Below, piece after piece: positions 1,552 through 43,498 of a DNA stretch of 64,000 nt. The stretch comes from Candidatus Dormiibacterota bacterium. GTDB lineage: Bacteria; Chloroflexota; Dormibacteria; Aeolococcales; Aeolococcaceae. Location: positions 289,136 through 353,135 of the forward strand of contig CAWBSL010000003.1 of the NCBI GenBank assembly GCA_963791435.1. The letters run 5' to 3'. The notes under the pieces are model-generated. The model searched no databases, was not told where the DNA came from, and was given only the letters and a program-made list of their open reading frames with translations. How positions within the stretch are numbered: the first letter of the stretch is position 1; every line of letters starts with the position of its first letter. Made by a program: the position numbers and the translations under genes.

Positions 1552-1572
1552 TCCCGACGCTGGAAGATGCGG

Positions 1573-1881: not shown

Positions 1882-1894
1882 GGATGCTGCCTCC

Positions 1895-2332: not shown

Positions 2333-2414
2333 GACCGTTGCTACCAGAGATACCTCGTGGCGAAACCGCAGCGCCGAGGACCGCCAAGCCGATCGACCTT
2401 CGCGATCCTAATCG

Positions 2415-2467
2415 TGCCGGGAGAGGGAGTCGAACCCTCACGAGGTTGTCCTCGGCGGTTTTTGAGA
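2415..2467. repeat. attL: 53-bp direct repeat identical to the 3' end of tRNA-Leu(CAA) at 16555..16607
   Basis: Exact 53/53 match tgccgggagagggagtcgaaccctcacgaggttgtcctcggcggtttttgaga; flanks diverge immediately outside. Confidence 0.85.
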
Positions 2468-2690
2468 GCCCGGTCTGAGCGTTTCCGCGTGTCACCGTGG
2501 GGCGTCGCGTATTCGGCGTCCACGATGGCCGTGACTCCGTGTGCTGCTGCGGTGTGCGGGCTGACGGTCGCGTAGGGGTACGCGTAGGGGTCCTATGCCT
2601 CGGATTCCCAGTATTGGCTCCGCCGCGCACCTCGTCGCCGGAGCGCCGACCACACGCGGGGATATTCGAGTGTTAAGCGTTTCGAGGTCC

Positions 2691-3410
2691 TTATGACGTC
2701 TCTGGTCGGGCGAAGCTATCTCGCGCTTGAATATCAGTCGGCGGCTCCATCCTTCCGTCGCGGATGGCCAGATGGACGTCACATCGGGCATTCACCGCTG
2801 GGTCGTGGGTGGCGACTATTACCGTGGCGCCGGTTCGTGCATGCAGCTCGATGAGGAGCTCGACAATTGTGTCGCCGGTCGCAGAGTCGAGGTTCCCGGT
2901 GGGCTCATCCGCAAGCAGCAACGGTGGACTGACGATGAGCGCCCGCGCAATTGCGACCCGCTGCTGCTCACCACCAGACAGCTCCGACGGCAACGCATCA
3001 CCTCGGTCGCCCAGGCCCACCTGCTCAAGGAGTTCGAGCGCTCGACGCTGCAATGCCTTCCCGGCTTCGTAGGGAAGCAGCGGCGCTGCTACATTGTCAG
3101 CTGCCGTCAATGCGGGCAACAGGTGAAATCGTTGGAACACGAACCCCACCTTGCGCCGGTAGGTGACCAGCTTCCGAGGCGGCAGTTCGTCGAGCTGCGT
3201 CTCTCCCACCCTCAAGGTGCCCGACGTGAGGATGTCCATGCCACCGATCACGTGCAGCAGCGTGGACTTCCCCGATCCCGACGGACCAGTGATCGCCACC
3301 AATGACCCAGCAGCGATGTCGATGTCAACGTGGTCCAGTGCCGTCTGCGACCGCTCGCCGGCAGGATATTCGCGCGCCAGCCCACGTCCGGTGATCGCGA
3401 CGCCCGGCAT
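2691..3410 (-). CDS. ABC transporter ATP-binding protein (MacB/LolD/FtsE-like), island copy
   Basis: Walker A GPSGSGKST, signature LSGGEQQRVAIARAL, Walker B LLLADEPTGNLD; ~90% identical to 39096..39815. Confidence 0.85.
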   Translation of the reverse strand: MPGVAITGRGLAREYPAGERSQTALDHVDIDIAAGSLVAITGPSGSGKSTLLHVIGGMDILTSGTLRVGETQLDELPPRKLVTYRRKVGFVFQRFHLLPALTAADNVAAPLLPYEAGKALQRRALELLEQVGLGDRGDALPSELSGGEQQRVAIARALIVSPPLLLADEPTGNLDSATGDTIVELLIELHARTGATVIVATHDPAVNARCDVHLAIRDGRMEPPTDIQARDSFARPETS

Positions 3411-3413
3411 TGG

Positions 3414-5810
3414 TCAGTCCTCCGCCAGCGCTGCTGCGGGTGCCGTCTGCGATGCCCGCCAGGCAGGAATCATCAGCACCGCACCCACCAGGGCAAGTCC
3501 GATCATTGCGGCCAATATCGCCGAAGGCGCAACCGCTACTGCCGATCCCGTCAAGATTGCCGCGAGCCCAAGCCCAACCGCACCGCCGGCGATAGCACCC
3601 ACCACGCCGACCATCATGCCTTCCGTGAAGGCGAGACGGAAGAGCGTCGCGGGCCGCCATCCCGTGGCTGCCAGCACCGCCTGCTCCCCAGCACGATCGC
3701 GCAGGTTCACCGCAAGCACATCTGCGACGCTGAACGCGCCAAGCAGAAGCGCCAGAACCGCTGCAATCAGGTCCACGCTGCGCACCTGGAGACTCACCAG
3801 GTTGCCCAGTGCAGTCCCAACGACCTGGCCTTGAAATGCCAGTTGCACGGCGAGTAACAGCGCGAACGCCGCGACGCCGATGAACAACCCGAGCGCACCG
3901 GTGATCAAGCGCGAGGGACGGCGCAGCAGATTCGCACGCGCGATCCCAGAGACCTGCCGGACCGCACGGTGACGTCCGCCACCACCCGGCACGGAGTACA
4001 CCGCATCAAGCGGACGGCCGCGCGTCGCCGCATACGCAGGCGCGAGACCGGCAACGCACGCGAGGCCAAGGGCGATCGGCACCACCAGAAGTGCATGCCA
4101 CCAGGGCAGGTCAAGGCGCAGGGCCAGCGCCAGTATTTCGGCTAACGCTGCGCCAATCACACCCGTGACCATACCGACCAGGGCAAGCTCGCCCAGCACG
4201 AGTCCGAAGAGAGCTGCCCGACCCCATCCGAGACACGCCAGCACTCCGAGTTCGGTGCGTCGCGAGCGTACGCTCGCGTAGGCGCCGTTGGCGAGAAACA
4301 GTACGCAGACAACAAGCACGAGCACAAAGAGCACCAGGCTCTTCGCATCAACCGCGTTCAGCACCACGAGTGCTGCGCCCTTGCGCACCCAGCCTTCTGC
4401 CACGGTGAGCGCCGGCTCGCCGCAGCACCCGGCCGGAAGATCGACGTCAATGGTGGTGGGTGACGATCCTGCGGTGATGTCGACCTGCAAACCGGTCGCC
4501 TTCTTGATCGCTGTCGCTACCGCGAGGATGCGAGCGCGATCGATCGGCTCGAAGCCATGCACATTTGCCACTCGGACGCGAATCGCACTGATGGGAGCGG
4601 CGGTGTCCGTGTTGGCGTAGCGGGCGCAAGGTTCGCCGGGAGCGTTCACATAGCAAGAGTTGGAGAGCATCTGTTCAGCCGCTGTCAGGCTCGTGAGCAG
4701 AAGCGGCGGCTGAGCCACGTAGCCGCCTAGGTTCATCGTCGGTCCAAGTGGTCGATTGTCGAGCGCCTTTCTCGACGCGGCATTCGCACCGGTCACAACA
4801 GGCGGGTAGTACGTCTCCAGCGGCACCGCGCTCAGCGGGCTGAACCCGGGCAGCTTGTCCGGATCGAACCGCCCAACCTCATCGAGTCCCACAAAGCCTA
4901 TATGGAGGGTGTTCAGATTGTAGATGTCGTTGCCGCGGTGCAATGTAAGCCCACGGAACTGAGTGTCCTGGTTCCCAGGGGGCGCCAGCGTAAATGGCGG
5001 TTGGCCTGTCGGGTCCGAGTTCCAAATGCTGGCCGGATTACTCGTCGGAACCGCAATCAGTCCATTCGGGCCGGAGCGGTACTCGACCTGTGAGGTCGTC
5101 CAGTAGTTGTCCGACCCGCCGCCCTCGTCGAAGCCGTAGCCCGCGCTTCCACGTCCCGTCGACTGCATGCCGGCAAGGGCGTTCAGCGCGGCTGTGTAGC
5201 CGCTTTGCGCCGAAACGGCTCGCTGGGCCACGCTGGCACCGCCAAGACTTCCCAAGAAAGAACTCACTACGCCAGCGGTGGTGTTGGACAGTGCCGTCGC
5301 CACGTCGACCCCTGGCGGGAGGTTCAGACGCTGGATGCTCGCAGTCAGCGACTGGTCGAGGAACGTGCGCGACGAGGCGATCACGGGAAGGTCATCCTCA
5401 ATGACGTCCCCCGGCGCCTGCTGGGCCGGCGTGATCAGCCCCTGCAACTCAGATAGATACTGTCCCGCCACCAGGGTGTGTTGCAGGCCGACCAGCTTCG
5501 CTTCCTGCACCGGATCGACGGCGGACAGCAGCACGGGAAAGTTGAAAGCGATGGCGACGCCCGGCTGCGGACCCACCCCCAGGTCGGCGCCCGATCCGAC
5601 TGACGGAGTCTTTCCTGAGAAGCATTCGATAGCGCCGCCAACCGCGCTATCGAGTGGGCCGGTTGGCGCGTTTCCAAGCGCGTTTGCACACACCTGTGCC
5701 AGCGTCGCCTGGCCGGGTATCGCTTCGCCGAATGACGCCTCCGGCCCATGCGGCAGTTGGGGGTTGTAGTTGGGAAGCCGCATGAAGGCATCGCTCGGCG
5801 TGTAGTACAC
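3414..5810 (-). CDS. FtsX/MacB-like ABC permease, C-terminal ~800 aa (extracytoplasmic domain plus FtsX TM bundle); N-terminus displaced by frameshifts
   Basis: The C-terminal TM region is ~80% identical to the chromosomal paralog 36294..39092. The reading frame stays open upstream to ~5925 and is homologous there (YVYYTPSDAF vs YVYITRNAMAP). Confidence 0.6.
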   Translation of the reverse strand: MYYTPSDAFMRLPNYNPQLPHGPEASFGEAIPGQATLAQVCANALGNAPTGPLDSAVGGAIECFSGKTPSVGSGADLGVGPQPGVAIAFNFPVLLSAVDPVQEAKLVGLQHTLVAGQYLSELQGLITPAQQAPGDVIEDDLPVIASSRTFLDQSLTASIQRLNLPPGVDVATALSNTTAGVVSSFLGSLGGASVAQRAVSAQSGYTAALNALAGMQSTGRGSAGYGFDEGGGSDNYWTTSQVEYRSGPNGLIAVPTSNPASIWNSDPTGQPPFTLAPPGNQDTQFRGLTLHRGNDIYNLNTLHIGFVGLDEVGRFDPDKLPGFSPLSAVPLETYYPPVVTGANAASRKALDNRPLGPTMNLGGYVAQPPLLLTSLTAAEQMLSNSCYVNAPGEPCARYANTDTAAPISAIRVRVANVHGFEPIDRARILAVATAIKKATGLQVDITAGSSPTTIDVDLPAGCCGEPALTVAEGWVRKGAALVVLNAVDAKSLVLFVLVLVVCVLFLANGAYASVRSRRTELGVLACLGWGRAALFGLVLGELALVGMVTGVIGAALAEILALALRLDLPWWHALLVVPIALGLACVAGLAPAYAATRGRPLDAVYSVPGGGGRHRAVRQVSGIARANLLRRPSRLITGALGLFIGVAAFALLLAVQLAFQGQVVGTALGNLVSLQVRSVDLIAAVLALLLGAFSVADVLAVNLRDRAGEQAVLAATGWRPATLFRLAFTEGMMVGVVGAIAGGAVGLGLAAILTGSAVAVAPSAILAAMIGLALVGAVLMIPAWRASQTAPAAALAED

Positions 5811-6297
5811 GTAGTCGGCACCACCGGGATATACCGAGGCGCCGTTGGCCGCTTTCCAGGAAAGGCTGACTCTGGAAGAGTTGATGCGCGGCTGACGTGA
5901 TCGCCGATCCGATTGGGATCGTCACTGTCGCCGACAGGAACACGTAGCCGATGTTCGCGATCGGTGCGGCCACGGCCACACCCTGGAGCGACTCGATCCG
6001 CTGCCATTGCGCCAAGCTGATTCCGCCGAAGGTATCTGCGAGGTAGTTGTCCCGAACCAAGTTGCTCTGAGTCTCGACAGCGTTGGCCGCACCTTTCGGA
6101 CGTACCAGAATGTCGTAGGCTGGCCGCGCAGCCGCATCGACGGTGCCATGGACCGCCAGTTCACTCGTCGAGGCAGCGGCGGTGAGCAAGGAGAAGCTCA
6201 CCGCCGCGACCACGATGCCTGCTCCCAGAGCGATCGAGCGATCACGGCGCGATCGGACCTGCTGCCCAATCATCCGCCAAAGTCTCCTCGAGACCAT
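5647..6297 (-). pseudogene. N-terminal fragment of the same FtsX-like permease (separate frame); gene 3414..6297 is interrupted by at least two frameshifts near 5990 and 5865
   Basis: MVSRRLWRMIGQQVRSRRDRS...VAVAAPIANIGY aligns to the N-terminus of the intact paralog (MASKGMWRVIGRQVRSRRDRS...VTVAAPIAILGY). Homology then moves to the 5435..6007 frame (RVPVGDSDDPNRIGDH vs RVSVERVTDDGLTRQTDAP, and LPESAFP vs chromosomal LPESVFP), then to the 3414..5810 frame. Confidence 0.5.
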
Positions 6298-6450
6298 GTC
6301 TTTATGATGAACCGGTGGGATATGGAATGACGGTCAACGTGGCGCTGCAACCCACCGACGATCGCTTTCAGTGCATCGGCATAGCATTTTCGATGTATCG
6401 ACTTGGCCCATCAGCTGCTCGACGCGCTTGAGGCGAAACGCAACTGCCGC

Positions 6451-6479
6451 TTGACAGTTGGTCCCCAGAGTGCTACTAC
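6451..6479 (+). promoter_or_regulatory. candidate sigma70-type promoter for the precursor-peptide operon (TTGACA, 17-nt spacer, TACTAC)
   Basis: Consensus -35 hexamer TTGACA at 6451-6456 and a -10-like TACTAC 17 nt downstream, ~30 nt upstream of a GGAGGG RBS and ATG 6512, in a 160-bp divergent intergenic region. Confidence 0.35.
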
Positions 6480-6511
6480 CTCGTCAGGTCAATTCATGGA
6501 GGGCATCGAGC

Positions 6512-6709
6512 ATGGCGCACCTCGTCTCTAAGCTGGCTGACCGAGTCCTCGCTACCGTTTTGCCCGAAAGGAGCGCAGGGGCGCCCTGCATGCCATTCTG
6601 TGTGTGCGTTAAGGACAGTAGCTGTTCCGCCCCGGCTTGTGCAAATCGCTGCATCAACTCTTTCTGCCACACCACGTACATCTGCCACGATGGTTGCACA
6701 ACGTGCTAG
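6512..6709 (+). CDS. Cys-rich RiPP/bacteriocin-like precursor peptide (65 aa: 24-aa leader plus 41-aa core with 10 Cys)
   Basis: MAHLVSKLADRVLATVLPERSAGA / PCMPFCVCVKDSSCSAPACANRCINSFCHTTYICHDGCTTC; GGAGGG RBS 7 nt upstream of the ATG; no Sec-type signal; first gene of a co-directional operon with redox, export and peptidase genes. Confidence 0.6.
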   Translation: MAHLVSKLADRVLATVLPERSAGAPCMPFCVCVKDSSCSAPACANRCINSFCHTTYICHDGCTTC

Positions 6710-7040: not shown

Positions 7041-7562
7041 ATGCTTCCATATCTGACCATGTCGTGCAGGCTTCTCCTCGGCCTCGTCTTCCTCGTGTCA
7101 GCGGTGACCAAGCTGCGCACTGGCGCGACGCGGCGGGAGTTTGTGCTCTCTGTACGCGCACTTCTGGGCTACGAGCGGGCACTCTCCGTAATCCTTGCTA
7201 CCGCGTCGGTAGCCGCGGAACTTGTGATCGTAGTGCTCCTGACGCTGCCCAGCACCATGGCGTTCGGCTTCGTCACCGCGGCGCTTCTCCTCGTGGCATA
7301 CGCAGTTGTGCTTGGCCGTGCCCTCAAACGCGGTGTTCGGGCGCCGTGCCAGTGTATCGGCTCATCGACGGCCCCGATCCGTGCGTGGCTCATCGCTAGA
7401 AACATCGGCCTAGTCCTGGTCAGCCTCATAGGCCTTGCGGGTATACACTCAGAGCCTCAAATCCAAGTGTCAACCGGTTTGGCAGCGAGCATCGCGATAG
7501 CGATCTTTGGCGTCATCGTCGTCGCTTCCTTCGACGACTTCCTCTACCTTGTCGAGGGTTAG
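7041..7562 (+). CDS. MauE/DoxX-like polytopic membrane protein, putative disulfide-bond-formation (thiol oxidase/quinone-coupled) component
   Basis: 173 aa, ~4 predicted TM helices, CQC motif in a loop; architecture resembles MauE, which is required for disulfide formation in the methylamine dehydrogenase small subunit. Stop/start abut the next gene (7562/7565). Confidence 0.5.
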   Translation: MLPYLTMSCRLLLGLVFLVSAVTKLRTGATRREFVLSVRALLGYERALSVILATASVAAELVIVVLLTLPSTMAFGFVTAALLLVAYAVVLGRALKRGVRAPCQCIGSSTAPIRAWLIARNIGLVLVSLIGLAGIHSEPQIQVSTGLAASIAIAIFGVIVVASFDDFLYLVEG

Positions 7563-7564
7563 CC

Positions 7565-8128
7565 ATGGCAGTCGGAACGCTTGCCCTCGCCGCAATCGCC
7601 GTAGCAGTAAGTCTCTTTAGCCTCTTGCTCAATCTAGGGGTAGTGAGGCGACTCCGCGAATATTCCGCGCACTCCGGGGCATTTCCGGGCTTTGACTCGG
7701 GACCTCGTCCCGGGGCAGTGCTACCCGACTTTACCGCGAATACCACCGTCGGCTCTGCGATTAGCGCGACGGCGTTTGCGAACGGCGATGGGTACATCGC
7801 GTTCCTCTCAGCGTCATGCGAAGCCTGCAAGTCCCAATTCCCACTTCTCGCGCACTACGCTGACGCAGCAAGCATAGATCGGCTCCACTCTCTCGTGGTC
7901 GTGGCGGGTGATCCGAGGGGCGATAGCCTCTACGCGCGCGATGCGACACGCTTTGCGCAGGTTGTCCTCGAAGACGGATCGCTGGTAAGCGCCTTCGATA
8001 TCCGCGGCTTTCCTACACTCGTTGGTGTGCGCGATGGTCGGGTGGTCGTGAGCGCACCCTTAGTCGAGGCGCTCTACCAAACGAACACGAAGCAAGAGAG
8101 TGCCCACGCGGGTTCAGCGCGCTCCTAA
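7565..8128 (+). CDS. membrane-anchored thioredoxin-fold thiol:disulfide oxidoreductase (TlpA/ResA/DsbE-like)
   Basis: N-terminal TM anchor (LALAAIAVAVSLFSLLLNL) followed by a thioredoxin-like domain with a CEAC CxxC active site (FLSASCEACKS). Confidence 0.6.
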   Translation: MAVGTLALAAIAVAVSLFSLLLNLGVVRRLREYSAHSGAFPGFDSGPRPGAVLPDFTANTTVGSAISATAFANGDGYIAFLSASCEACKSQFPLLAHYADAASIDRLHSLVVVAGDPRGDSLYARDATRFAQVVLEDGSLVSAFDIRGFPTLVGVRDGRVVVSAPLVEALYQTNTKQESAHAGSARS

Positions 8129-8153: not shown

Positions 8154-9953
8154 ATGAGGCTGTGCTGGACGTCTGCGCCCACATCGATAGCGCTAATGTT
8201 AGCGACCAGCATCGGGCTGGGGTTTGTCCCCGTTGCCTACGCCTTGCTAACGCGGGTAATCATTAACTCATTGGTCGGGCATCAAAGCGTGCCGACCATC
8301 CTCGGAATCGCAGGCCTCGCCATCACGACGGCCGCACTATTGATTTTAGCTCCACTCACTAGTTACGCCGTCGCTGAGTTGAATCGCAAGCTCGAGGTCG
8401 GCATGCAGGGTGACCTGTTTGCTGCGGTAGGACAACTGTATGACCTACGGCTATTGGAGAGCCCGAGATTCCTGGATCGATTGCGTCTCGCCCAGCAGGC
8501 GGGACTGAGTGCGCCGGCCCAGGTAGTTGCAGGTTGCCTGGCGACCGTCCAGAGCGGGGTCACGCTGATTGGCTTCGTAGCTGCGTTGGCGGTACTGGAT
8601 CCGTGGATCGCCGTACTCGTGGTCGGCAGTGGTATTCCGGCGATTGTCGCTGAGCTCCGCCTAGGCACATCACGTGCTGAGATGTATCTGCGCGTTAGCC
8701 CCTTTCGGCGTCGGATTCTTGGCTATATCTCGCTCTTGGTTGACCCGAATGCCGCTCAGGAGGTCCAAGCGTTCGGACTTGGCTCTCTTCTGAGGGAGCG
8801 ACTGCTGCGAGCGATTGATCACGCGACGCGGGCTGAACGTACCCAGGATCGACGTGAGGTACGGACGCGCACAGTGCTGGCATGCATTGCCGCTGCCGCA
8901 AGCGTCGCGAGCCTCAGTTTGGTAGCAGTGGGTGCGCTGCATGGGCAATTTAACGTCGGAGATGTCGCGATCGTGCTCGCGGCGCTTTCCACACTCCAAC
9001 TCAGCCTCTCCGGACTGGTTGCACAATTCGGTCAGATGAGTGGAGCATTGCGAATGCTCGACCACTATCGTGCCGTGATCGCCTCCGCAACGGAAGCGAC
9101 CAGCGGTACGAGCCGAGACGCTGGAAAGGCGCAGGTTGGTATTGGACGGCTGCGCCGCGGCGTGGAGTTGCGTGGCGTCTCTTTTCGGTATGACGAGAGT
9201 CAGCCCTGGGTTCTGCAAGATGTGGATCTGTTCATTCCATTCAACGCATCGTTGGCGCTCGTCGGTCCAAACGGATCCGGTAAGAGCACGATTGTCAAGT
9301 TGCTTTGCCGCTTCTACGATCCCACCCGTGGTGCAGTACTATGGGATGGCGTGGATTTGCGCGAGCTACCCGTCGTCGCTCTGCGTCGCCAAGTCAGTCT
9401 AGTTCTCCAGGATCCGGTTATGTACGATCTCAATGCAAGCGAGAACATTGGCGTTGGGAACGTGGCGTTACTCGCCGATCGAGACGCAATACGCCGAGCT
9501 GCCGATCTGGCCGACATCGACGACGTCCTCGCTCATTTACCTCACGGGTATGACACCCTCCTCAGCCGCCTTTTCTTCGATGATGCGGCTTCGGACGTTG
9601 GAATCGTCCTCTCGGCCGGACAAGCACAACGTTTGGCGATTGCCCGCGCCTTGATGCGCACCGATGCGGACCTGCTCATCATGGACGAGCCAAGCTCGTC
9701 GTTAGATGCCCAGGCGGAGCACCTTCTGCAAGAGCGCCTCAGTCAACTGCGTGGCGGTCGAGCCACGCTCTTGATCTCGCATCGGTTGAGTTCCGTTCGG
9801 GCTGCTGCTCAGATCGTTGTCCTGGACGGTGGCCGGGTCGTGGAAGTGGGTAGCCACCAACAGCTTCTGGAGGTCGGCGGGATGTATGCGGAACTCTTCC
9901 AACTCCAAGCGGCTGGATATGCAGATCTCACCCTGCCCCTCCGATCAAGTTGA
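8154..9953 (+). CDS. ABC exporter, fused 6-TM permease plus ATPase, no C39 peptidase domain; putative peptide exporter
   Basis: Walker A GPNGSGKST, signature LSAGQAQRLAIARAL, Walker B LLIMDEPSSSLD, H-loop ISHRL; N-terminal half hydrophobic. An alternative in-frame start at 8100 overlaps the upstream gene by 29 nt. Confidence 0.8.
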   Translation: MRLCWTSAPTSIALMLATSIGLGFVPVAYALLTRVIINSLVGHQSVPTILGIAGLAITTAALLILAPLTSYAVAELNRKLEVGMQGDLFAAVGQLYDLRLLESPRFLDRLRLAQQAGLSAPAQVVAGCLATVQSGVTLIGFVAALAVLDPWIAVLVVGSGIPAIVAELRLGTSRAEMYLRVSPFRRRILGYISLLVDPNAAQEVQAFGLGSLLRERLLRAIDHATRAERTQDRREVRTRTVLACIAAAASVASLSLVAVGALHGQFNVGDVAIVLAALSTLQLSLSGLVAQFGQMSGALRMLDHYRAVIASATEATSGTSRDAGKAQVGIGRLRRGVELRGVSFRYDESQPWVLQDVDLFIPFNASLALVGPNGSGKSTIVKLLCRFYDPTRGAVLWDGVDLRELPVVALRRQVSLVLQDPVMYDLNASENIGVGNVALLADRDAIRRAADLADIDDVLAHLPHGYDTLLSRLFFDDAASDVGIVLSAGQAQRLAIARALMRTDADLLIMDEPSSSLDAQAEHLLQERLSQLRGGRATLLISHRLSSVRAAAQIVVLDGGRVVEVGSHQQLLEVGGMYAELFQLQAAGYADLTLPLRSS

Positions 9954-9973: not shown

Positions 9974-10444
9974 TCAGCGTTGTGCGCCTGTGCTGAGCCG
10001 GCGCACGACAACCCCCGTAATAAGGTCGCTCGCGATCGGACCCCACTGCTTGGAGTCCTGGCTCTCCGGATGATCGCCAACCACTACGATCGACTTTGTC
10101 GGGACGGTTGTGTGAGCAAACGTCGGATGGCCGCATACCACTTCTGATGGCATAGGAGCACCGCTTACTGCAACCAACCGCTTGACCATCCAGTCACCAG
10201 CAGTTGCGCCTGGGGGCAACTGCACCTGCGGTGGCGCTCGCAGGGTGATGATTGAGTTGACCCGGGCGCAGCGCCTGAGTCGGAGTACGAGAAGACGGTC
10301 GCCCGGCTGAAGCGCGGGAGCCATGCTCGATCCCACGACGCGAATCACAATGAATAGTCGCCGGAGCAGCCACCAGGAGAAGAGGAGGACTCCCGAAGTT
10401 CCGAGCCATAGAGTACCGCGGGCTCGGCTTCTGCGTCCCACCAC
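9974..10444 (-). CDS. type I signal peptidase (S26 family, short form)
   Basis: N-terminal TM, catalytic Ser box VVGSSMAP, Lys box WMVKRLVAVSG, box E VVVGDHPESQDSKQWG; 156 aa. Confidence 0.75.
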   Translation of the reverse strand: MVGRRSRARGTLWLGTSGVLLFSWWLLRRLFIVIRVVGSSMAPALQPGDRLLVLRLRRCARVNSIITLRAPPQVQLPPGATAGDWMVKRLVAVSGAPMPSEVVCGHPTFAHTTVPTKSIVVVGDHPESQDSKQWGPIASDLITGVVVRRLSTGAQR

Positions 10445-13477: not shown

Positions 13478-13870
13478 CGCGAAAACTCGCCCTGCACGAG
13501 CTTCAGCGTAGGGAGAAAACGCCTACGCAGCGCTTACATTCTCGGAACGTTTGATCTGGAAGAAATCAGCGATGCAACTGTGTGCGCTTCAGGGTCGTCG
13601 ATGCGTGTGCGCGAGGCAATGATGGCGGTGAGAACGGACGCGTGAAGCAGATATGCGTTTGTTGAAGGTGAGAGGAGATGGCCGGCAGACGGAGGACCGA
13701 AGTGATGACGAGGAGCACGCGGCGCTGCCGACGCGTCCGATCCCGCAGACTACCCGCCGACGCGGCTGCCCTACTGTCGCGGTGCCAGCAGCGCGGCCCG
13801 AATTCGCGCAGTTACCGACATGCGCGCCACCTGCAAGGCGCAGCTCACCAGCACGAGTGGACGCGGCGTT

Positions 13871-14008
13871 CGCGAATAGCGCGGTGCGCTCGAGCGGCGC
13901 AACGTTCGCGAATAGCGCGACGCTCGCGAAGAGCACGACGCGCGCGAATAGCGCGACGCTCGCGAATAGCGCGACGTTCGTGAATAGCGCGGTGGGCGCG
14001 AACCTCGC
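13871..14008. repeat. tandem iteron array, ~7 copies of an 18-bp unit (CGCGAATAGCGCGACGYT), upstream of the relaxase gene
   Basis: Units start at 13871, 13907, 13925, 13943, 13961, 13979 and 13997 with strict 18-bp phasing; copies degenerate at the edges. The ORFs 13653..14102, 13678..13983 and 13771..14106 are translation artefacts of the repeat. Confidence 0.8.
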
Positions 14009-14558
14009 GAAGTGCGCTGGACGCGCGACGTCTGCGGGAAGCGTGATGTGCGCTGGAATCGCGATGTGCGCGGAATTCGCGCGATCCGCACCATTCGCAT
14101 GATCACGTGGAAGGCGCGAGTGCCGCTAAGTAGCTTTCATCGTAGGAAGCGTGTCAACGTAGTGCGTACGCTCGCCGGGCGGATGCGTCCTGAGCTATCT
14201 GTCAGCCACGTCCTGGAGCCGCGGTGTCAAGGACTCGCGGACTTACCGAGCAGGCTTGCTGGTGTGCTGGTGTGCGGGAAAAGTGTAGGCGCTACGTAAG
14301 CAAATGCATGCCATGCTCGTGCCATGGATATCGCCGACGTGTCGCCGGGTACCGGCTATGTGCGCGGGAAGCCTCGCGCGGATCAGACGAAACTCCCTTG
14401 GGGTGCCGATGAGATGGTGTCGCCTCAAGGCACACAAGGGGCCTACGCTGACAGGGATGCACGAGGCCGACGAGGAACGCCCCCCACGCCAGCGCCATTG
14501 TTCGAGTTCGGCCACGCCGACACCTGTTGACATTCCGCCTGCATCGACACGCGCTCCG

Positions 14559-14720
14559 ATGCTGCTCACCGTTCGCGACCTGGAAGCTGAACTGCAACTC
14601 GGTCGCACACGCACCTACGAGCTGTTGCGCTCGGGCTCCATCCCCGTTATCCGCGTCGGACGCGCACTCCGCGTACCGCGCGATGCGCTGCGCCGCTGGG
14701 TAGACGAGCAGACCGCGTGA
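14559..14720 (+). CDS. xis: excisionase/helix-turn-helix DNA-binding protein (Xis family)
   Basis: 53 aa; MLLTVRDLEAELQLGRTRTYELLRSGSIPVIRVGRALRVPRDALRRWV is a typical MerR-like excisionase HTH; sits upstream of int. The ORF track places it inside a longer ORF starting at 14304. Confidence 0.65.
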   Translation: MLLTVRDLEAELQLGRTRTYELLRSGSIPVIRVGRALRVPRDALRRWVDEQTA

Positions 14721-14738: not shown

Positions 14739-14990
14739 TCAGCTCGCCGGTTGTACCGGTCGCACCGCGTCGTGAAGCCCCTCTGGATCGAGGTCTGCAC
14801 CGTTCGCCCACACCAGCGTGCCCAGCTCTGGATCCACGCTGACCCTGTTGAACTGAGCAATATCACGGAGCGGCTCGAACATCTCGCCCCAGAGCTCGTC
14901 GGCCAGGTCGATGTCGCCGACGACCCCGTCGCTGAACGTGAGCCGGAGCCTGTACTCACCGAGGCGCTCCACGCGCGTGACCTTGACCAT
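14739..14990 (-). CDS. DUF2442-family protein
   Basis: 83 aa; RLRLTFSDGVVGDIDL...ANGADLDPEGL pattern; paired with DUF4160 as is commonly seen. Confidence 0.5.
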   Translation of the reverse strand: MVKVTRVERLGEYRLRLTFSDGVVGDIDLADELWGEMFEPLRDIAQFNRVSVDPELGTLVWANGADLDPEGLHDAVRPVQPAS

Positions 14991-14999
14991 TTCCCAATC

Positions 15000-15269
15000 C
15001 TATGCGAGTGGCTCGATGGACGCCAGCGCCGTGCGCTCGATCACACGTTGCCAGTTGTCTCGCAGCTCCTGCTCGTGCAGGGCCGCCCATTCCATGACAT
15101 GCCCGAGCGCCCTCACCGGTAGCGAACCGTCAAGCACCACCAGCGGCTCGATTCCGATCGACGCTTCATGCTCCCCGTAGGTCGCGTGAAAGTGGGCCGC
15201 ATGGTGTTGCCCGCCGGTCTCCCAGTACATGGTGATGACGATGCCGTAGAAGGCGCTGATCCGCGGCAT
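15000..15269 (-). CDS. DUF4160-family protein
   Basis: 89 aa; MPRISAFYGIVITMYWE...HHAAHFHA motif; immediately upstream of the DUF2442 gene. Confidence 0.5.
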   Translation of the reverse strand: MPRISAFYGIVITMYWETGGQHHAAHFHATYGEHEASIGIEPLVVLDGSLPVRALGHVMEWAALHEQELRDNWQRVIERTALASIEPLA

Positions 15270-15270
15270 G

Positions 15271-16449
15271 TCAGCCCGTGGTGATCAGGCGGGTGAGCCG
15301 GTCGGCCGCGTCGTCGTGCAACTCCTGGAGGACGTCTGCGTACGTGTCGGCCGTGATGCCGATCGTGGAGTGTCCGAGCACAGTGCTGACCACCTTCAGC
15401 TCCGTCCCGCTCGCCAGCATCAGGGTCGCGGCGGCGTGGCGCAAATCGTGGAAGCGACGCACGATCAGGCCGGCTCGGCGAAGGCCGTTCTCGAAGCGAT
15501 GGGTCATCCCCGTCGGCTCCACCGGATGACCGGTGGGGCGCGTGAACACCAGCCCGGCGATCGGCTCGTGCCAGGCCGATCCGATGTGGAGGCGATCCTC
15601 ACGCTGGCGCTGTCGCTGGACTGCGAGCAGGTCGACCAGGGGATCGGGAATCCGCAACGTCCGCCGAGACCGCTTCGTCTTGGGCTCGAGGATTTTGAAG
15701 AGCACCTCCGGGTCGGATCGCTGGTCACGAGGGATGCGGTGCAGAGCGCCGGTGACGCGCAGCACCTTGCGCTCCAGGTCGACGTCGTCCCAGCGCAGTC
15801 CGAGGATCTCGCCCTGACGCATCCCGAGATACAGGGCCGTGCCCACGACCGCCTCGAGCTCGGTATCGCGAAAAGCGTCGAGGATCGCTCGGGCTTCCTC
15901 GGGGCGCACCGAGGCTGCCTTCGTCGCGGACACCTCGAGGGGCTCGGCCAGGGCTGCGGCGTTGCGAGCCACCGTGCCCCATCGCTGAGCGTCAGCTAGG
16001 GCCGAACGGAGCACCGCGCGAGCGTGGTTGACGGTTCGAGGCGCCAGGCCACCGGCGACCGCCTGCCGCATGGCGACGTTCACCTGCTGCGGGGTGAGTT
16101 GCGCCAGCTTGACCCTCCCCAGGAGAGGAATCAACTGGTACTTGATGAGGCTGCGGTACCGCCGCATGGTGGTCGGGCGGATGCTGGTCTGCCCCTCGAT
16201 CCAAGTGGCGAGAAAGTCGCCCACGGTCTGGCGGTCGGAGGCCGGTGCCACCCCGAGAGCGAGCCCGCGGATGGCCGCGTTCATCTTCGCGACCGCGTCG
16301 GCGCGGCTCTTGCCATACAGGCTGCGCCGGACCTGGCGGCCTCTCGCGTCAAAGCCGACCGTTACGCGCGCCTCCCACTGGCCCGGGCGTCGCTCTCGGA
16401 TCGTCCCTTCGCCAAGCCCTCGGCGCCTGCTCGTCACCCCTTCCTCCAA
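15271..16449 (-). CDS. int: site-specific tyrosine recombinase/integrase
   Basis: C-terminal catalytic region HDLRHAAATLMLASG...GHSTIGITADTYADVL (HxxR plus Tyr); N-terminal SAM-like domain; lies ~100 bp from the tRNA-Leu 3' end. Confidence 0.85.
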   Translation of the reverse strand: MEEGVTSRRRGLGEGTIRERRPGQWEARVTVGFDARGRQVRRSLYGKSRADAVAKMNAAIRGLALGVAPASDRQTVGDFLATWIEGQTSIRPTTMRRYRSLIKYQLIPLLGRVKLAQLTPQQVNVAMRQAVAGGLAPRTVNHARAVLRSALADAQRWGTVARNAAALAEPLEVSATKAASVRPEEARAILDAFRDTELEAVVGTALYLGMRQGEILGLRWDDVDLERKVLRVTGALHRIPRDQRSDPEVLFKILEPKTKRSRRTLRIPDPLVDLLAVQRQRQREDRLHIGSAWHEPIAGLVFTRPTGHPVEPTGMTHRFENGLRRAGLIVRRFHDLRHAAATLMLASGTELKVVSTVLGHSTIGITADTYADVLQELHDDAADRLTRLITTG

Positions 16450-16554: not shown

Positions 16555-16607
16555 TGCCGGGAGAGGGAGTCGAACCCTCACGAGGTTGTCCTCGGCGGTT
16601 TTTGAGA
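16555..16607. repeat. attR: 53-bp direct repeat copy lying within tRNA-Leu(CAA)
   Basis: Identical to 2415..2467. Confidence 0.85.
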
Positions 16608-16637
16608 CCGCTGCGTCTACCATTCCGCCACCCCGGC
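16555..16637 (-). tRNA. tRNA-Leu (anticodon CAA), type II with long variable arm
   Basis: Reverse complement reads GCCGGGGTGGCGGAATGGTAGACGCAGCGGTCTCAAAACCGCCGAGGACAACCTCGTGAGGGTTCGACTCCCTCTCCCGGCA; cloverleaf with 7-bp acceptor stem including one G-U pair, CUCAAAA anticodon loop, long variable arm. Confidence 0.85.
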
Positions 16638-35306: not shown

Positions 35307-36023
35307 TCAGTCGGGGCTCACCACCCGATCGAGCGCGGCCTTGATGATCCCGTAGCACTCGCAGGACACCAACTCCAGACCGTCGCGATCGACGATGGTG
35401 ACCCGTCCCCGGTGATACCGGATCAGCCCCGCCGACTGCAGGAGACCGGCCGAGAGCGTCACTGTGGCGCGTCGCGAGCCGAGCATCTGACCCAGGAATT
35501 CGTGCGTGATCGGGAAGGTATCGGTGCCCACCCGGTCGTGGCTCATGAGCAGCCACCGGCTCAACCGCTCCTCGTTGGAGTGGAGGCGGTTGCACGCGGC
35601 CGCCTGGGAGATCTGCCCGAAGAGGGCTTGCACATACTTCTGCACGAGCGCTCGAAACGCGGGCATCCGCTCGAGGCTCCTGATGAACTCGGTGGCCTCC
35701 ATGCGCAGCGTGCGTCCCGCCACCTGCGAGATCGCTCGTACCGCCAGGGATCCGCCCGGCACGAGCGGCACACCGACGATGCCTTCGTTCCCGATCGTGG
35801 CCACCTCGACGATATTGCCGTCAGCCAGAGGCGTGACCAGGGAGATGACCCCGTCCACCGGGAAGTGGACATGCGTGATCGGCTGACCAGGATCGAAGAT
35901 GACCGTCTTGACGCTGAGATGCCCCTGCCGAAGATGCTGCATCAGCGTCTCGCGCTCCGCGTGTGGCAGCGCCTCAAGCAGGTGGTTCCCTGCCGGCGCG
36001 CCCAAGGTGGCTCCCTTTGGCAT
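35307..36023 (-). CDS. Crp/Fnr-family transcriptional regulator
   Basis: cNMP-binding-like beta-barrel region plus C-terminal HTH (RATVTLSAGLLQSAGLIRYHRGRVTI). Confidence 0.75.
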   Translation of the reverse strand: MPKGATLGAPAGNHLLEALPHAERETLMQHLRQGHLSVKTVIFDPGQPITHVHFPVDGVISLVTPLADGNIVEVATIGNEGIVGVPLVPGGSLAVRAISQVAGRTLRMEATEFIRSLERMPAFRALVQKYVQALFGQISQAAACNRLHSNEERLSRWLLMSHDRVGTDTFPITHEFLGQMLGSRRATVTLSAGLLQSAGLIRYHRGRVTIVDRDGLELVSCECYGIIKAALDRVVSPD

Positions 36024-36143: not shown

Positions 36144-36215
36144 GCCGATGTAGCTCAGGGGTAGAGCAACCGCCTTGTAAGCGGTTGGTCGGGAGTTCGA
36201 ATCTCCCCATCGGCT
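36144..36215 (+). tRNA. tRNA-Thr (anticodon TGT)
   Basis: GCCGATGTAGCTCAGGGGTAGAGCAACCGCCTTGTAAGCGGTTGGTCGGGAGTTCGAATCTCCCCATCGGCT; anticodon loop CUUGUAA. Confidence 0.8.
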
Positions 36216-36293
36216 CCGCGACCTTCTGCATGACGCTTCTCATCCGATTGGGGGATGTCTGCCGGCGAGGAACGAGAAGTCATGATCCCGGCC

Positions 36294-39095: not shown

Positions 39096-39815
39096 ATGCC
39101 GGGCGTCGCCATCACTGGTCGAGGACTGACTCGCGAGTATCCCGCTGGCGAGCGCTCGCAAACAGCATTGGATCACGTCGACATTGACGTCGCCGCTGGA
39201 TCGCTGGTCGCGATCACCGGTCCCTCGGGATCAGGGAAATCCACCCTGCTGCACGTCATCGGTGGGATGGACATCCTCACCTCGGGCACCTTGCGGGTGG
39301 GGGATACGCAACTCGACGAACTGCCGCCGCGGAGACTGGTCACCTATCGGCGCAAGGTGGGATTCGTGTTCCAACGGTTTCACTTGCTGCCCGCGTTGAC
39401 GGCAGCTGACAATGTCGCAGCGCCGCTGCTTCCTTACGAGGCCGGGAAAGCATTGCAGCGTCGAGCGCGTGAACTCCTTGAGCAGGTTGGCCTAGGCGAC
39501 CGCGGTGACGCGCTGCCGTCGGAGTTGTCCGGAGGTGAGCAGCAGCGGGTAGCAATTGCGCGGGCGTTGATCGTCAACCCGCCGCTGCTCCTCGCCGACG
39601 AGCCGACCGGCAACCTGGACTCCGTGACTGGTGCGACCATTTTCGATCTGCTGATCGACCTCCATTCCCGCACTGGCGCCACCCTCGTGGTGGCCACGCA
39701 CGATCCCGCGATTGATGCTCGCTGCGACCGCCACATGGCAATTCGAGATGGAAGGATGGAGCCACCGCCGGCCGAAAGCTCAGCCCGTAGCTTCGAGCGC
39801 CCGGCTACGGCGTGA
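39096..39815 (+). CDS. ABC transporter ATP-binding protein (chromosomal paralog of 2691..3410)
   Basis: Walker A, signature and Walker B motifs; ~90% aa identity to the island copy. Confidence 0.85.
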   Translation: MPGVAITGRGLTREYPAGERSQTALDHVDIDVAAGSLVAITGPSGSGKSTLLHVIGGMDILTSGTLRVGDTQLDELPPRRLVTYRRKVGFVFQRFHLLPALTAADNVAAPLLPYEAGKALQRRARELLEQVGLGDRGDALPSELSGGEQQRVAIARALIVNPPLLLADEPTGNLDSVTGATIFDLLIDLHSRTGATLVVATHDPAIDARCDRHMAIRDGRMEPPPAESSARSFERPATA

Positions 39816-39975: not shown

Positions 39976-40575
39976 TTGGGTTTTCAACCGTGCGGTGTCT
40001 ATATGGGGGTGATGCAGGTCAGCGTCGAACCCGCGGTCTACCCCACGAAGCCGAAACCGGCGGTCGTCGTCCCCGACCCCGACGAGCGCGTCGCCGCCCT
40101 TTACATCGCGCACTACCAGCAGCTTGTCGGCCTCGCGACCATGCTGAGCGGAGGCCGCGCCGCGGGCGAGGAGATCGCGCAGGAGGCCTTCGTGACCGCT
40201 CTCCAGCACGAGCGGCGATCGCCCGGGTACCTCATAGATCCAGTGTGGCCGTGGCTGCGGATCACGGCTGTCCGGCTCGCAGGTCGGAACCGTCAGCGCT
40301 TGCTGCGTGAGGAACTGCTCTATCGGTTGCCCGGCGTCAATGCGGATACGTCGGGAGCTTGGGACGTCGAGACGCTCGATCTCATTCGGGCCTTGCGCCG
40401 GCTGCCGCCGAGGATGCGGCTGTGCGTGATCCTGAGTCATGTCGAGGATCAGAGCACCGCGTCGATCGCCGCAATGCTCGGGTGTTCGACCCAGAACATC
40501 GATGCCCAGCTGCGGAAGGGACGAGCGCGTCTTCGTACGCTGCTCGGCGAGCGCTACATCGAGAACGAGGACTAG
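39976..40575 (+). CDS. ECF-type RNA polymerase sigma factor
   Basis: Region 2 (EEIAQEAFVTAL) and region 4 (VILSHVEDQSTASIAAMLGCSTQNIDAQLRKGRARL). Confidence 0.7.
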   Translation: MGFQPCGVYMGVMQVSVEPAVYPTKPKPAVVVPDPDERVAALYIAHYQQLVGLATMLSGGRAAGEEIAQEAFVTALQHERRSPGYLIDPVWPWLRITAVRLAGRNRQRLLREELLYRLPGVNADTSGAWDVETLDLIRALRRLPPRMRLCVILSHVEDQSTASIAAMLGCSTQNIDAQLRKGRARLRTLLGERYIENED

Positions 40576-40583
40576 GTTCTGCC

Positions 40584-41623
40584 ATGACGGACCACATCGA
40601 CATGCTCACGTACCACTTGAAGCGAGCCACCGCTCAAGTTGCTGCAACGACGCCGCTCGCTCCGAAATTTGCCCCTTCGGTTGTTCGACACCAGGTCGCG
40701 GCGGGGCATCGAGCGACGCGCCGCAAGCTCCTTCGTTCGCGGATCGCGGTCGCATCTCTGCTCGTGACGGCCGTGGTGCTCGTCTCCGGCACGGTTTATG
40801 CCGGAATGACACTGCTTGAGTCGCAGACGCAAACCGATGCGGGCGCCGCCGCAGTCTCTCACCAGAACCTTGGGGTCGTTCTCGATCTCTCACAGACGCG
40901 CGACGGAGTGAGATTCACCCTGCTACGTGGTTACGCCGACATCAACCGGGTGATGATCACGTATCAGGTGCAACCGGTCCGTGCTGGAATCCTGTTCGCC
41001 GGTTTCGCGACGCCAACCGGCGAGCCGTCAGTCGCGGATTCGTTCGGGCAGGTGCTGCGTGGGTATGACGCTTCCTTTCAAACAGATCCGCAGACCGATG
41101 AGTCAGTCGGGATCGTCGTCTATGACGCCTCGTCGGCAACCGTGGATGTCAAGCAACTCTCCCTGAAAGTCGCTATCCCTGGGCTGCGAGTGCAGAGCCA
41201 GAGCGGAGCAACGCTTGTTGGACCGTTCGCGTTCGATTTCACGGTCCCTGTGTCATCGGGTCAAATGATCGTGCTCGGCAAGACCGTCGTCGTCCGCGGC
41301 GTCGAGGTGACCGTCGGCAGGGTGGTGGCGACGCCATCGGAGACCCGTGTCTACCTCCGGTCCGCCACTGTGCTCGGAGCGTCGACCCATATGTCTCCGC
41401 TTACATCACGGGCCAGGGCTACGACTCAAGAACGGGGACGATCACAACCCCCGCAGAGCTTGTCGACATGGGGTCGACGTTTCGGGAGCCGGATGGGGAA
41501 GAGGTCATCACGTTCAATCACACGCTCTTTGGGAAACGGGGCAAATTCACCTTGACCATTGCCAGCATCGGCGCCGACACAAGGGTCGTCGGGCCCTGGG
41601 TGTTCGACTTCGTCGTTCCGTAG
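40584..41623 (+). CDS. putative anti-sigma factor / membrane protein with repeated extracytoplasmic beta domain, frameshift near 41390
   Basis: Single TM (IAVASLLVTAVVLVSG); two similar repeats ending VGPFAFDFTVP and VGPWVFDFVVP, the second in a different frame (ends 41623). Confidence 0.5.
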
Positions 41624-41949: not shown

Positions 41950-42481
41950 TCAGATGCCGGCACCCAGCATCGCCATCGGGTTTGCGCCGGTTGTCGCGTC
42001 GACGAACGTCACGAAGTTGCAGCCGCTGGTGTCGTTGACACCGGGCCCGGAGCTCGGTCGGCCTTCCGGGCCCATCATCTGGCAATTGACGCCGTCCCAA
42101 CTGATCGCCCAAACCAGTAGCCGGTCGATGCCCATACCGGAATCGCTGAGGACGCCGAGTTCGATCGAGGTCGGCTGTCCCGTTCCACAGGAGACGTCAG
42201 ATCCCGGTTGCGAGCACAACGCGATGGCTTCAGACGGAGTGAGTTTTGGAGTGACAGTCCCGGGCGGGTCGAGGTTGTGGCCCCAAAGCCCGGGTAGCTC
42301 ACGCTGCGAATCACGGATCGCCTAAGCGTCGACGCCTCAGTTCTCGATGACCGGGCAGCGACATGCGAGGCTGACAGCTCCGCGTTGCCCGTCGCGAGAT
42401 GGGCGATGTTCGGCTCCGCAGGATGTCACTGCGACGACGGACGCAACGAGCGCGATTGTCAATGTCACACCGAGACGAACC
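41950..42481 (-). CDS. putative small lipoprotein, frame-disrupted
   Basis: A GTG-start lipoprotein signal VTLTIALVASVVAVTSCGA at ~42481 runs into a stop, while a secreted-looking C-terminal segment continues in the 41950..42219 frame. Low confidence. Confidence 0.25.
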
Positions 42482-42632
42482 CAGCTGGACGACGGAGTTC
42501 TGTTCGTGTGCGTTGGACCTCACTAAGGCGATTGCCAGGATCGGCTTCCAGTTCACGAAGCGTAGCTCAACCCATTGACACGCGCCGTGTCGCTCTGGTT
42601 TCAGCTGATGAGGCGTCTGTTCGCCGTGGACG

Positions 42633-43498
42633 TCAGGGGTTGTGGTCATTGAAGTTGATGCAGAGGTTGGGATTCGGCGGCGCTGCCACGAACAACGTGT
42701 CGCCAAATGCACACACGGTTTCGGACGCGTTGAGAACCTCGACGATCTTTCCGTCGTAATCGCCGGTGCAGCTGGCGAAGGAGATGGAGGAACTCGTCGG
42801 CGTCCCGTCGATGCAGGTGCCTGCGACGAAGGTCTCGGCGACAGTCCCCTGCGGAACGTTGGCGCTGTTGTTGTTCTGATTGGTGTAGATCCAGATACCA
42901 GCCACCAGTGCGATGGCGAGGACCGGCATGACGACTCGCATGACCTGTGCCCTGCGTCCCATGGGCGTCCCGCGGAATGGGGGAGGCGTTGTCGGCATCG
43001 GTGGCGGGCCGACGGGAGGCGGGCTGACCACCTGCACGCCACCGATGCCGTCGCTCGCGGGCGTTCCCGCTTGGGCCAGAAGTGGCGGCGGCTCGCTGCA
43101 ACGGCAGGCGACGGCGCACCGCTCTCGCGGAGACGGCGCATGTACTCATCGCCGCTGATCGCATTGGTGGTGTACAGGATGGCGAGCTGATTCAGCGATT
43201 TTGCCCATTGCAGCTCGGTGCCGGAGAGGTTGACGCCACGGTTGCACACCGGGCAGATAAGCATGTGCTGGCGCTCGTAAGGGATGACCGGGATGAAGAA
43301 GAGCGTCAGCCAGCGGCGCACCTGGACGAGGTAGAACCAGTTCGAGTTGCTGCAGTTCCGGCACCACTGAAAGAGAACCGGTCCCGCGTGGTGGAACGTG
43401 CGCCGCCCCCAGCCGAAGATGACCACAATTCGCCTCCCGGGCCCATCGTGCAGAGACTTCGCGCCAGACGCGGATGCGCGGTTGTTCCTCGCGGTCAC
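42633..43498 (-). CDS. zinc-ribbon domain protein with Pro-rich linker, single TM and small extracytoplasmic domain; probable frameshift near 43050-43100
   Basis: N-terminus FFIPVIPYERQHMLICPVCNRG (zinc-ribbon-like) in the 42311..43498 frame; Pro-rich PPPVGPPPMPTTPPP, TM VVMPVLAIALVAGIWIY and a Cys-containing domain in the 42633..43037 frame. Confidence 0.4.

Follow-up and report, generated by a model that had tools for sequence, protein, structure and literature searches.

An FtsX-type ABC transporter module beside a cysteine-rich peptide operon on a tRNA-Leu island, and its apparently old chromosomal paralogue, in a Dormibacterota genome

Two modules of one transporter family

The window, by which we mean the whole 64,000-nucleotide stretch of contig CAWBSL010000003.1 from a Candidatus Dormibacterota bacterium (G+C content 66%), holds two transporter modules of the ATP-binding cassette (ABC) type, each composed of a large FtsX-family permease and an ATPase. 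Module A lies on an island bounded by a tRNA-Leu gene, where it is transcribed divergently from an operon for a cysteine-rich peptide. Module B lies about 30 kb away on the chromosomal side, in the opposite orientation. An earlier note, made from the letters of this DNA, had described two inverted FtsX/ABC modules at this distance, and they are present as it said. It had gone on to propose that module A is a near-duplicate of module B and that its permease is frameshifted, and had offered the module as a candidate for producer immunity or efflux. These proposals are weighed below. Labels beginning with L denote retrieved contigs or loci with relatives, those beginning with P denote homologous proteins, and the coordinates of all features are collected in Table 1.

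Both permeases contain two stretches that match Pfam FtsX (PF02687), with scores of 67.5 bits for permease A and 69.2 bits for permease B at a gathering cut-off of 25.5, and both ATPases match ABC_tran. In NCBIfam, the best matches of the ATPases were LolD, FtsE and MacB (E-values of 1e-59 to 1e-62), all under the equivalog cut-offs, and no NCBIfam model names either permease or is matched by one at its cut-off. The AlphaFold model of permease B (mean predicted local distance difference test score, pLDDT, 85.5; predicted template modelling score, pTM, 0.74) contains eight long helices and a beta-rich outer domain. At the N-terminus, the first transmembrane helix (TM1) extends as a stalk (helix 22-62) and is followed by the beta-rich domain (63-616), by TM2-4 (helices 617-734) and by a second four-helix unit (770-926) with nearly no outer loop. 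The outer domain of about 555 amino acids (aa), which sits between TM1 and TM2, was matched by no Pfam family, MacB_PCD included. A Foldseek search of the PDB with permease B returned MacB-superfamily transporters only. The best match was the pneumococcal transporter Spr0694-0695 (5xu1), with YbbAP, LolCDE, MacB, YtrEF, HrtBA, FtsEX and BceAB among the others; the entries 5xu1, 9ge6, 9rld, 5gko, 5nik and 9o9x were found with a probability of 1.00 and E-values of 2e-5 to 2e-3, and the template modelling scores were low because of the large extra domain. By domain content, predicted topology and predicted fold, both modules can be attributed to the type VII (MacB/FtsX-superfamily) ABC transporters, each with two FtsX units fused in one permease of eight predicted transmembrane helices and the ATPase as a separate protein.

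The defining features of three narrower families were tested and were absent, and the modules are therefore not MacB proper, BceAB or ADOP. For MacB proper, the ATPase is here a separate gene and the permease reached 24.9 bits against a cut-off of 966 for NF007826; Pfam scans of the neighbouring genes detected no membrane-fusion (MacA/HlyD) or outer-membrane partner beside either module. An assignment to the BceAB type disagrees with the eight helices, with a domain between TM1 and TM2, and with the neighbours, which are Crp, tRNA and extracytoplasmic function (ECF) sigma and anti-sigma genes and no two-component system. With the ADOP duplicated-permease model (TIGR03434), for which the cut-off is 622, the two permeases scored 27.6 and 19.1 bits.

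The resemblance between the two modules is distributed unevenly. The ATPases are 88.3% identical in protein, close to the 90% of the earlier note, 81% in DNA and 59% at third codon positions. The permeases share about 50% of their residues overall, with 76% in the membrane part TM2-8 and 34% in the middle of the outer domain, which agrees with the earlier estimate of some 80% for the transmembrane regions and with diverged extracytoplasmic domains. In a blastn comparison of module A with module B, 1873 nt could be aligned at 73% identity and the 5' 1.7 kb did not align. The 4-fold degenerate sites of the permeases are 27-31% identical against a chance expectation of 31% from base composition, and exact matches between the modules reach at most 20 nt. 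Every family ATPase retrieved from related Dormibacterota genomes is 84-89% identical to the island ATPase, so that the value of about 88% between A and B is no sign of recency; high ATPase identity is a property of the family.

A search with permease B retrieved 132 relatives, which fell into two groups when compared with permease A, the latter in its repaired reading frame (see below). In the first group, identity is 67-81% with permease A and about 50% with permease B, and for the second group the reverse was found. Defined by these pairwise identities, the A-type and B-type permeases appear to represent two old paralogue clades, which are present in several copies in Candidatus Dormibacterota and have members in Actinomycetota as well. 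A recent origin of the island module by inverted near-duplication, with the pair driving a 30-kb inversion or the capture of the element by homologous recombination, would agree with the inverted orientation, the like gene order and the 88% identity of the ATPases, and also with a 357-nt patch of 90% identity in the ATPase genes, which indicates that the modules exchanged sequence at least once. This account is at odds with the short and dissimilar nucleotide alignment, with permease synonymous sites at chance level and with the membership of the two permeases in different clades that stand in tandem in other genomes; the ATPase similarity, as said, is common to the whole retrieved family. An exact match of at most 20 nt makes a 30-kb inversion by homologous recombination unlikely as well, and we regard the whole account as extremely improbable. 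The term near-duplicate has therefore to be given up, since low nucleotide identity and saturated 4-fold sites are those of ancient paralogy, and the pair presents no recombination hazard. The earlier note had itself named such low identity as the outcome that would refute its proposal. What remains is, on these comparisons, best described as ordinary paralogy of old date, one of the two copies being carried by a mobile element.

The patch itself was seen in the third-position identity between the two ATPase genes, which is about 0.8 in codons 51-160 and 0.35-0.53 on both sides. A two-rate scan delimited it to gene positions 115-471 (357 nt), with a divergence of 10.1% within the patch and 24.8% outside; control pairs diverge by about 20% within the same segment. 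In 300 codon permutations the observed value was never attained, and among 66 pairs of family ATPases the pair from the window was the top outlier in this segment and average elsewhere. Within the patch, the island copy has an identity of 0.90 to the window's B-type ATPase and to that of L081, which are 0.92 identical to each other, and outside the patch it is far from both. The patch looks like an old gene conversion with the chromosomal lineage as donor and the island copy as recipient, with few sequences behind this inference, and would be the only trace of past recombination between the two modules.

Downstream of module B, no att-like repeat was found within 14 kb, despite the adjoining tRNA-Thr gene. 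Its surroundings are recognisable in relatives: L017, L028 and L075 are syntenic with the locus (Crp 89%, Zn-ribbon protein 91-94% identical) and hold A-type permeases between these markers, and the window's own locus contains the B-type permease and ATPase only. The chromosomal site can therefore be seen as a variable cassette locus, and the A type is not specific to the island. Two A-type permeases were found in L010, L015, L017 and L028, followed by the ATPase in the last three; the L010 contig stops 78 bp into the gene after its two permeases. In L008, a single ATPase is shared by one permease of the B type and one of the A type. When the locus in L017, L028, L075 and L008 is compared with window positions 35307-43498, the number and type of FtsX permeases vary, always with one ATPase. 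An evolutionary link of module A with a chromosomal system, as the earlier note had suspected, is thus supported by the A-type permeases at the relatives' Crp-Zn-ribbon locus and by the converted ATPase patch; what did not hold was a recent duplication. Module B is probably a chromosomal paralogue with another specificity, and would then act in envelope stress or detoxification, with an outer domain of different specificity.

Table 1. Features of the window discussed in the text (positions are those of the window; evidence as reported)
Feature	Position	Strand	Evidence
attL, perfect 53-bp copy of the tRNA-Leu(CAA) 3' part, left island end	2415..2467	.	
Module A ATPase, 239 aa, MacB/LolD/FtsE-type ABC ATPase	2691..3410	-	ABC_tran match, NCBIfam
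Low-divergence ATPase patch, island side	2940..3296	-	
Module A permease, duplicated FtsX type, 960 aa after removal of the extra base	3414..6297	-	Pfam, homologue alignment
Single extra base causing the frameshift in permease A	5873..5873	-	
Cys-rich precursor peptide, 65 aa, 11 Cys	6512..6709	+	
MauE-like membrane protein	7041..7562	+	PF07291, E 7e-22
Thioredoxin-fold, MauD-like protein	7565..8128	+	weak AhpC-TSA and MauD matches; synteny conserved
ABC exporter of type I with permease and ATPase fused, 585 aa per sister contigs; longest open reading frame from 8100	8196..9953	+	
S26 (signal-peptidase-I-like) peptidase	9974..10444	-	PF10502, E 9e-12
TrwC/TraI-type relaxase-helicase, 972 aa, 229 bits	10559..13477	-	Pfam
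Array of 18-nt tandem repeats between relaxase and excisionase-type gene	13862..14075	.	
Excisionase-type helix-turn-helix (HTH_17)	14556..14720	+	Pfam
DUF2442 and DUF4160 small gene pair	14739..15269	-	
Tyrosine integrase	15271..16449	-	
tRNA-Leu(CAA); 3' 53 nt (16555-16607) are attR	16555..16637	-	
Crp/Fnr-type regulator, left marker of permease-cassette locus	35307..36023	-	
tRNA-Thr(TGT), just upstream of module B	36144..36217	+	
Module B permease, intact, 945-aa open reading frame; 936 aa from 36282 as in P0001	36255..39092	+	Pfam, AlphaFold
Module B ATPase, 239 aa	39096..39815	+	ABC_tran match, NCBIfam
Low-divergence ATPase patch, chromosomal counterpart	39210..39566	+	
ECF sigma factor, downstream of module B	39976..40575	+	
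DUF4179 anti-sigma-like protein, downstream of module B	40359..41555	+	
Zn-ribbon protein, marks the cassette locus on the right; identity in L017 and L075 91-94%	42311..43498	-	

The tRNA-Leu island and the frameshift in its permease

The island is delimited by a perfect 53-bp direct repeat, the attachment (att) sites, one copy of which is the 3' part of the tRNA-Leu gene. Module A lies as cargo inside these boundaries, which confirms its placement on an island, together with the genes for the precursor peptide, the MauE-like and MauD-like proteins, the type-I ABC exporter and the S26 peptidase. The neighbours outside attL are LMWPc and a mycothiol-S-transferase-like gene; in sister contigs, lgt and dnaE lie at a greater distance. 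No family of a type IV secretion system (T4SS) was found among the island open reading frames (ORFs) scanned with Pfam, the small ones not having been scanned exhaustively. From its gene content the island is predicted to be a 14.2-kb integrative mobilisable element.

Related elements carry similar cargo. The sibling island L014 (MFD04434.bin.2.142 contig_37494, 1-13777) is 88% identical in its integrase-side region and holds two A-type permeases, one ATPase and a Kelch-like protein, with the identical 53-bp att directly after the ATPase; neither a peptide operon nor a recognisable relaxase was seen there. In L072, a relaxase 88-93% identical to that of the window lies near a distant family member, and in L001 a coupling protein adjoins the closest A-type homologue. 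These contexts make FtsX/ABC cassettes a recurrent cargo of such elements. The contigs L006 and L007 end within att. We considered this as evidence of excision and rejected it, a 53-bp repeat being sufficient by itself to break assemblies.

Two further observations concern the relaxase side of the island. The tandem array in front of the excisionase-type gene comprises about 11 copies of an 18-nt unit with the consensus CGCGACGCTCGCGAATAG, and may be an array of binding sites or related to the origin of transfer (oriT). The relaxase region (10600-13400) differs by 4-5% from L003 and L004, and the cargo region (2.4-10.5 kb) is nearly identical, which suggests either that related islands have exchanged modules or that this part of the sequence was poorly polished.

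In the window, the reading frame of permease A is interrupted. One frame change was sufficient to follow the island permease in a tblastn comparison with permease B, and in the three-frame translation the sequence ...HQLFQ of one frame is carried on by VSLSWK... in the next. The interruption can be attributed to one extra base, which on the minus strand stands in the context CTCTTCC[A]GAGTC. With base 5873 removed, the gene consists of 960 codons with a single terminal stop, and its protein can be aligned over the full length with intact homologues, to which it is 80-81% identical. The earlier note had counted at least two frameshifts, the second of them near 5990, for which the middle-frame ORF 5435-6007 was considered. 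This candidate was rejected, as that third frame has no similarity to the family and a single mismatch to L003 was found there; the one extra base is enough.

The exact island ATPase protein was found on six public contigs. The 3.0-Mb contig L004, L005, L006 and L007, the latter from the Logan assemblies of public sequencing runs, are without the extra base and read CTCTTCCGAGTC. On those that span the gene completely (L004-L006), the permease was called as a protein of 952 aa, from a start at about 6273. The form CTCTTCCAGAGTC with the extra base was seen in the window and in L003 only, and records of the truncated product of 798 aa with a GTG start exist for no more than two contigs. Over the 3.6 kb of module A, these assemblies show 0-2 mismatches.

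Frame interruptions are frequent elsewhere in the window. Broken across two frames are polA (20449-21663 / 21224-23197), uvrB within its interaction domain (25105-26115 / 25691-27139) and radA (27515-27760 / 27642-28883), and ispD (30219-30768), which lacks its N-terminus, was also counted among these frame-split housekeeping genes. The sister contig L002, which spans window positions 26286-49086 (22.8 kb), is separated from the window by 104 gaps, 94 of them of a single base. The sister contigs belong to metagenome-assembled genomes (MAGs) of Microflora Danica, a project based on deep Nanopore sequencing (PMC12313526). In view of the split genes and the single-base indels, any frameshift in the window has to be distrusted, and a consensus error at 5873 is plausible.

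The same kind of interruption was seen in other contigs of the same European Nucleotide Archive (ENA) assembly series (L001 3344-4665, L003 161-2642), where a T4SS coupling protein was called as two pieces and a relaxase as three; these are consistent with indel errors throughout the series. Between 28000 and 34000 (the end of radA, ispDF, cysS and rlmB), the window differs from L002 by about 10% mismatches, with 0-2% in the flanks, and this stretch represents either core genes in a block that has recombined or varies among strains, or a consensus made at low coverage.

A true pseudogene, decaying because the chromosomal module makes the island copy redundant, is the other explanation for the interrupted frame. 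The insertion stands outside a homopolymer and is present in a second assembly (L003/L091), so that a real variant in a sub-population is possible. Against long-term decay, the lesion is single and the other codons are open over the full length of the homologues, four assemblies (L004-L007) that are almost identical over the module are without the insertion, and the split of polA, uvrB and radA shows how common single-base indels are in this window. We therefore hold a decaying pseudogene to be rather unlikely: a single 1-nt insertion that is missing from most assemblies does not amount to decay, and frameshifts in a Nanopore-derived genome are not to be read as such. The frameshift is one inserted base, either a consensus error or a recent variant, and whichever is the cause, the permease gene is intact in most of the population. 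The extra base adjoins GAGTC, a GANTC site, and could reflect a systematic error at a methylation motif.

The peptide cluster and the role of module A

The precursor peptide of the window carries a leader with the motif LADRVLxxVLP and an AxA site ahead of the first cysteine. No NCBIfam model matches it. Its gene contains a (TG)n tract at about 6596-6605 whose length varies by 1-2 nt among assemblies; the window and L004 are in frame, and L003, L005 and L006 are out of frame. This variation is due either to sequencing error in a dinucleotide repeat or to slipped-strand on/off switching of the peptide.

With the window's proteins in tblastn and with a search for the leader motif, the ensemble of precursor, MauE, thioredoxin/MauD-like protein, ABC exporter, S26 peptidase and FtsX permease with ATPase was found again in eight other loci. 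Among these are L012, L019 in Dormibacterota, L032 in an actinomycetotal MAG, L047 in Kitasatospora phosalacinea (NBRC 14627), L061 and L067 in Microbispora, and L071 in Streptomyces sp. NBC_00727. In L012, whose permease is 75% identical to permease A, the whole arrangement is repeated with a homologous precursor (6181-6369). The precursors of the more distant loci lie at about 9618-9791 (L019), 13567-13797 (L032), 6153-6437 (L047), 9265-9441 (L061 and L067) and 9748 (L071). Gene order is shuffled among the loci, and the proteins are 37-75% identical in distant taxa. All precursors share the leader hxx[LVM]AD[RQ]hhxxhhP, most of them with AxA just ahead of the first cysteine, and are always accompanied by a MauE and/or thioredoxin-like gene, the S26 peptidase, the ABC exporter and the FtsX module; leader motif and gene set were absent from the remaining loci, about 80 in number. 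AxA is the site that S26 signal peptidases classically recognise. Upstream of the cluster in L012, positions 1-825 encode the C-terminal part of a protein with RHS/YD repeats (motif RARYYDPTTGQFMSRDP); its tail is variable, and it may be a polymorphic toxin.

The conserved ensemble makes an immunity or efflux role of the FtsX module reasonable. In the mechanism we propose, the type-I ABC exporter would move the precursor across the membrane, the S26 peptidase would cut the leader after the conserved AxA site, the MauE and MauD-like proteins would form disulfides, and the FtsX module would protect the producer by removing the peptide from the outer face of its membrane. By analogy with the second transporters of other bacteriocin clusters, producer self-protection is the most likely function of the module. 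The suggestion of a producer-immunity or efflux transporter thus gains comparative support, the link to a cysteine-rich peptide being conserved in other loci. Most loci of the family are without a peptide operon.

Two other functions were weighed. MacB-type pumps act on substrates that are already outside the cytoplasm, and the MacAB-TolC system of E. coli expels the disulfide-bonded enterotoxin STII. The FtsX module may likewise be a route of secretion or maturation, releasing the oxidised peptide from the membrane's outer face or across an outer layer, and its co-occurrence with exporter, peptidase and oxidoreductase genes in two phyla and the fold matches to the MacB superfamily fit such a role. 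On the other hand, every cluster already has its own dedicated type-I ABC exporter, a membrane-fusion or outer-membrane partner was not seen beside either module, and there are close homologues of the module that have no peptide operon, and this role appears unlikely. The module and the peptide operon could also be unrelated cargo, the module being a general transporter for the envelope or for antimicrobial detoxification that is often carried by mobile elements in this phylum. The absence of peptide genes from most family loci, the two permeases and ATPase carried without a peptide operon by L014, and the family members near relaxase or coupling-protein genes in L072 and L001 speak for this. 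Yet the adjacency recurs with shuffled gene order in taxa whose proteins share only 37-75% identity, which is hard to credit to chance, and the leader motif was found only where the accessory genes are also present; independent cargo is accordingly the more doubtful of these two alternatives, and quite improbable.

In summary, the best overall explanation, to which we give a probability of about 0.65, is that A and B are old paralogues, that module A is carried by a mobilisable island and most likely confers immunity to the neighbouring peptide, that its ATPase gene received a short segment by old conversion and that its permease is interrupted by a one-base frameshift. Several points weigh against this explanation. 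The immunity role is drawn from gene neighbourhood only; the peptide operon stands beside only 8 of about 78 representative loci; and the closest homologues of permease A, P0045 (81%), P0029 (80%) and P0046 (75%), have no adjoining peptide operon, so that the module family is broader than a peptide role. The module could, as discussed, serve secretion and not protection. The direction of the conversion depends on two B-type orthologues, one of which (L081) has indels of its own, and the patch is old, being 10% diverged. That a transfer apparatus is lacking was concluded from Pfam scans limited to the larger ORFs. Finally, the extra base, shared by two different assemblies and outside a homopolymer, may be a real inactivating variant.

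A wider view can be put forward tentatively, at somewhat less than even odds: the clusters may represent an uncharacterised bacteriocin-like system of two phyla, in which a precursor with the common leader, the AxA site and a core of 6-12 cysteines gives a disulfide-rich peptide, with MauE-like and MauD-like proteins, S26 peptidase and type-I ABC exporter, and with a duplicated FtsX permease and its ATPase as dedicated immunity pump. In Dormibacterota the system would travel on mobilisable tRNA-Leu islands, which repeatedly take up FtsX/ABC cassettes as cargo and exchange sequence with the variable cassette locus of the chromosome. As the same gene set is present in cultured actinomycetes, the peptide product and the role of the FtsX pump are open to experiment. 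FtsX/ABC cassettes are a common mobile cargo in this poorly known soil phylum, and an uncharacterised peptide cluster attached to an otherwise ordinary paralogy is of moderate interest.

Comparison with known systems

The island resembles the integrative mobilisable elements of tRNA genes in its tyrosine integrase at the tRNA 3' end, the att duplication, the excisionase-type helix-turn-helix gene and the relaxase, with no transfer apparatus among the ORFs scanned. It differs from them in its host phylum, Dormibacterota, and in its cargo of a peptide cluster with an FtsX/ABC module.

With the MacB/type VII transporters (MacB, LolCDE, FtsEX, HrtBA, YtrEF, YbbAP), the modules share the FtsX unit of four transmembrane helices, an outer domain between TM1 and TM2, the type of ATPase and the predicted fold. 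They differ in that two FtsX units are fused in one chain of eight helices with an outer domain in the first unit only, in that this domain of about 555 aa has no Pfam match, and in having a separate ATPase and no adjacent membrane-fusion gene; their NCBIfam scores are far under the curated cut-offs. Among the Firmicutes, FtsX transporters of the BceAB, Spr0694-0695 and SalXY type confer resistance to peptides. The modules resemble this type in an FtsX permease and ATPase tied to antimicrobial peptides, with 5xu1 as top structural match and BceAB among the matches, and in the position beside a bacteriocin-like operon. BceB, which works with the BceRS two-component system, has ten transmembrane helices, and its outer domain is placed between TM7 and TM8, whereas the permeases described here have eight predicted helices, a domain between TM1 and TM2 and no adjoining two-component system.

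As to the peptide, a literature search on MauE together with cysteine-rich peptides found nothing relevant apart from the decRiPPter study. There, candidate RiPPs (peptides made on the ribosome and modified after translation) of Streptomyces include small precursors beside mauE, one family also beside mauD (PMC7794033). These genes lie outside a methylamine dehydrogenase context and were proposed to act in peptide modification or disulfide formation (PMC7794033). The neighbourhood of precursor and mauE/mauD is, by description, like that of the cluster in the window; unlike it, the decRiPPter families are predictions without a product, and S26 peptidases and FtsX transporters are not mentioned in the main text of that paper (PMC7794033).

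The arrangement of two transporters in one cluster, finally, recalls the lantibiotics. There, LanFEG provides producer immunity, and its permeases are of the ABC-2 type. The permeases of modules A and B are of the FtsX type, and the likeness is one of functional analogy only: in both cases a dedicated exporter would be combined with another ABC system by which the producer's membrane is kept clear of the product.

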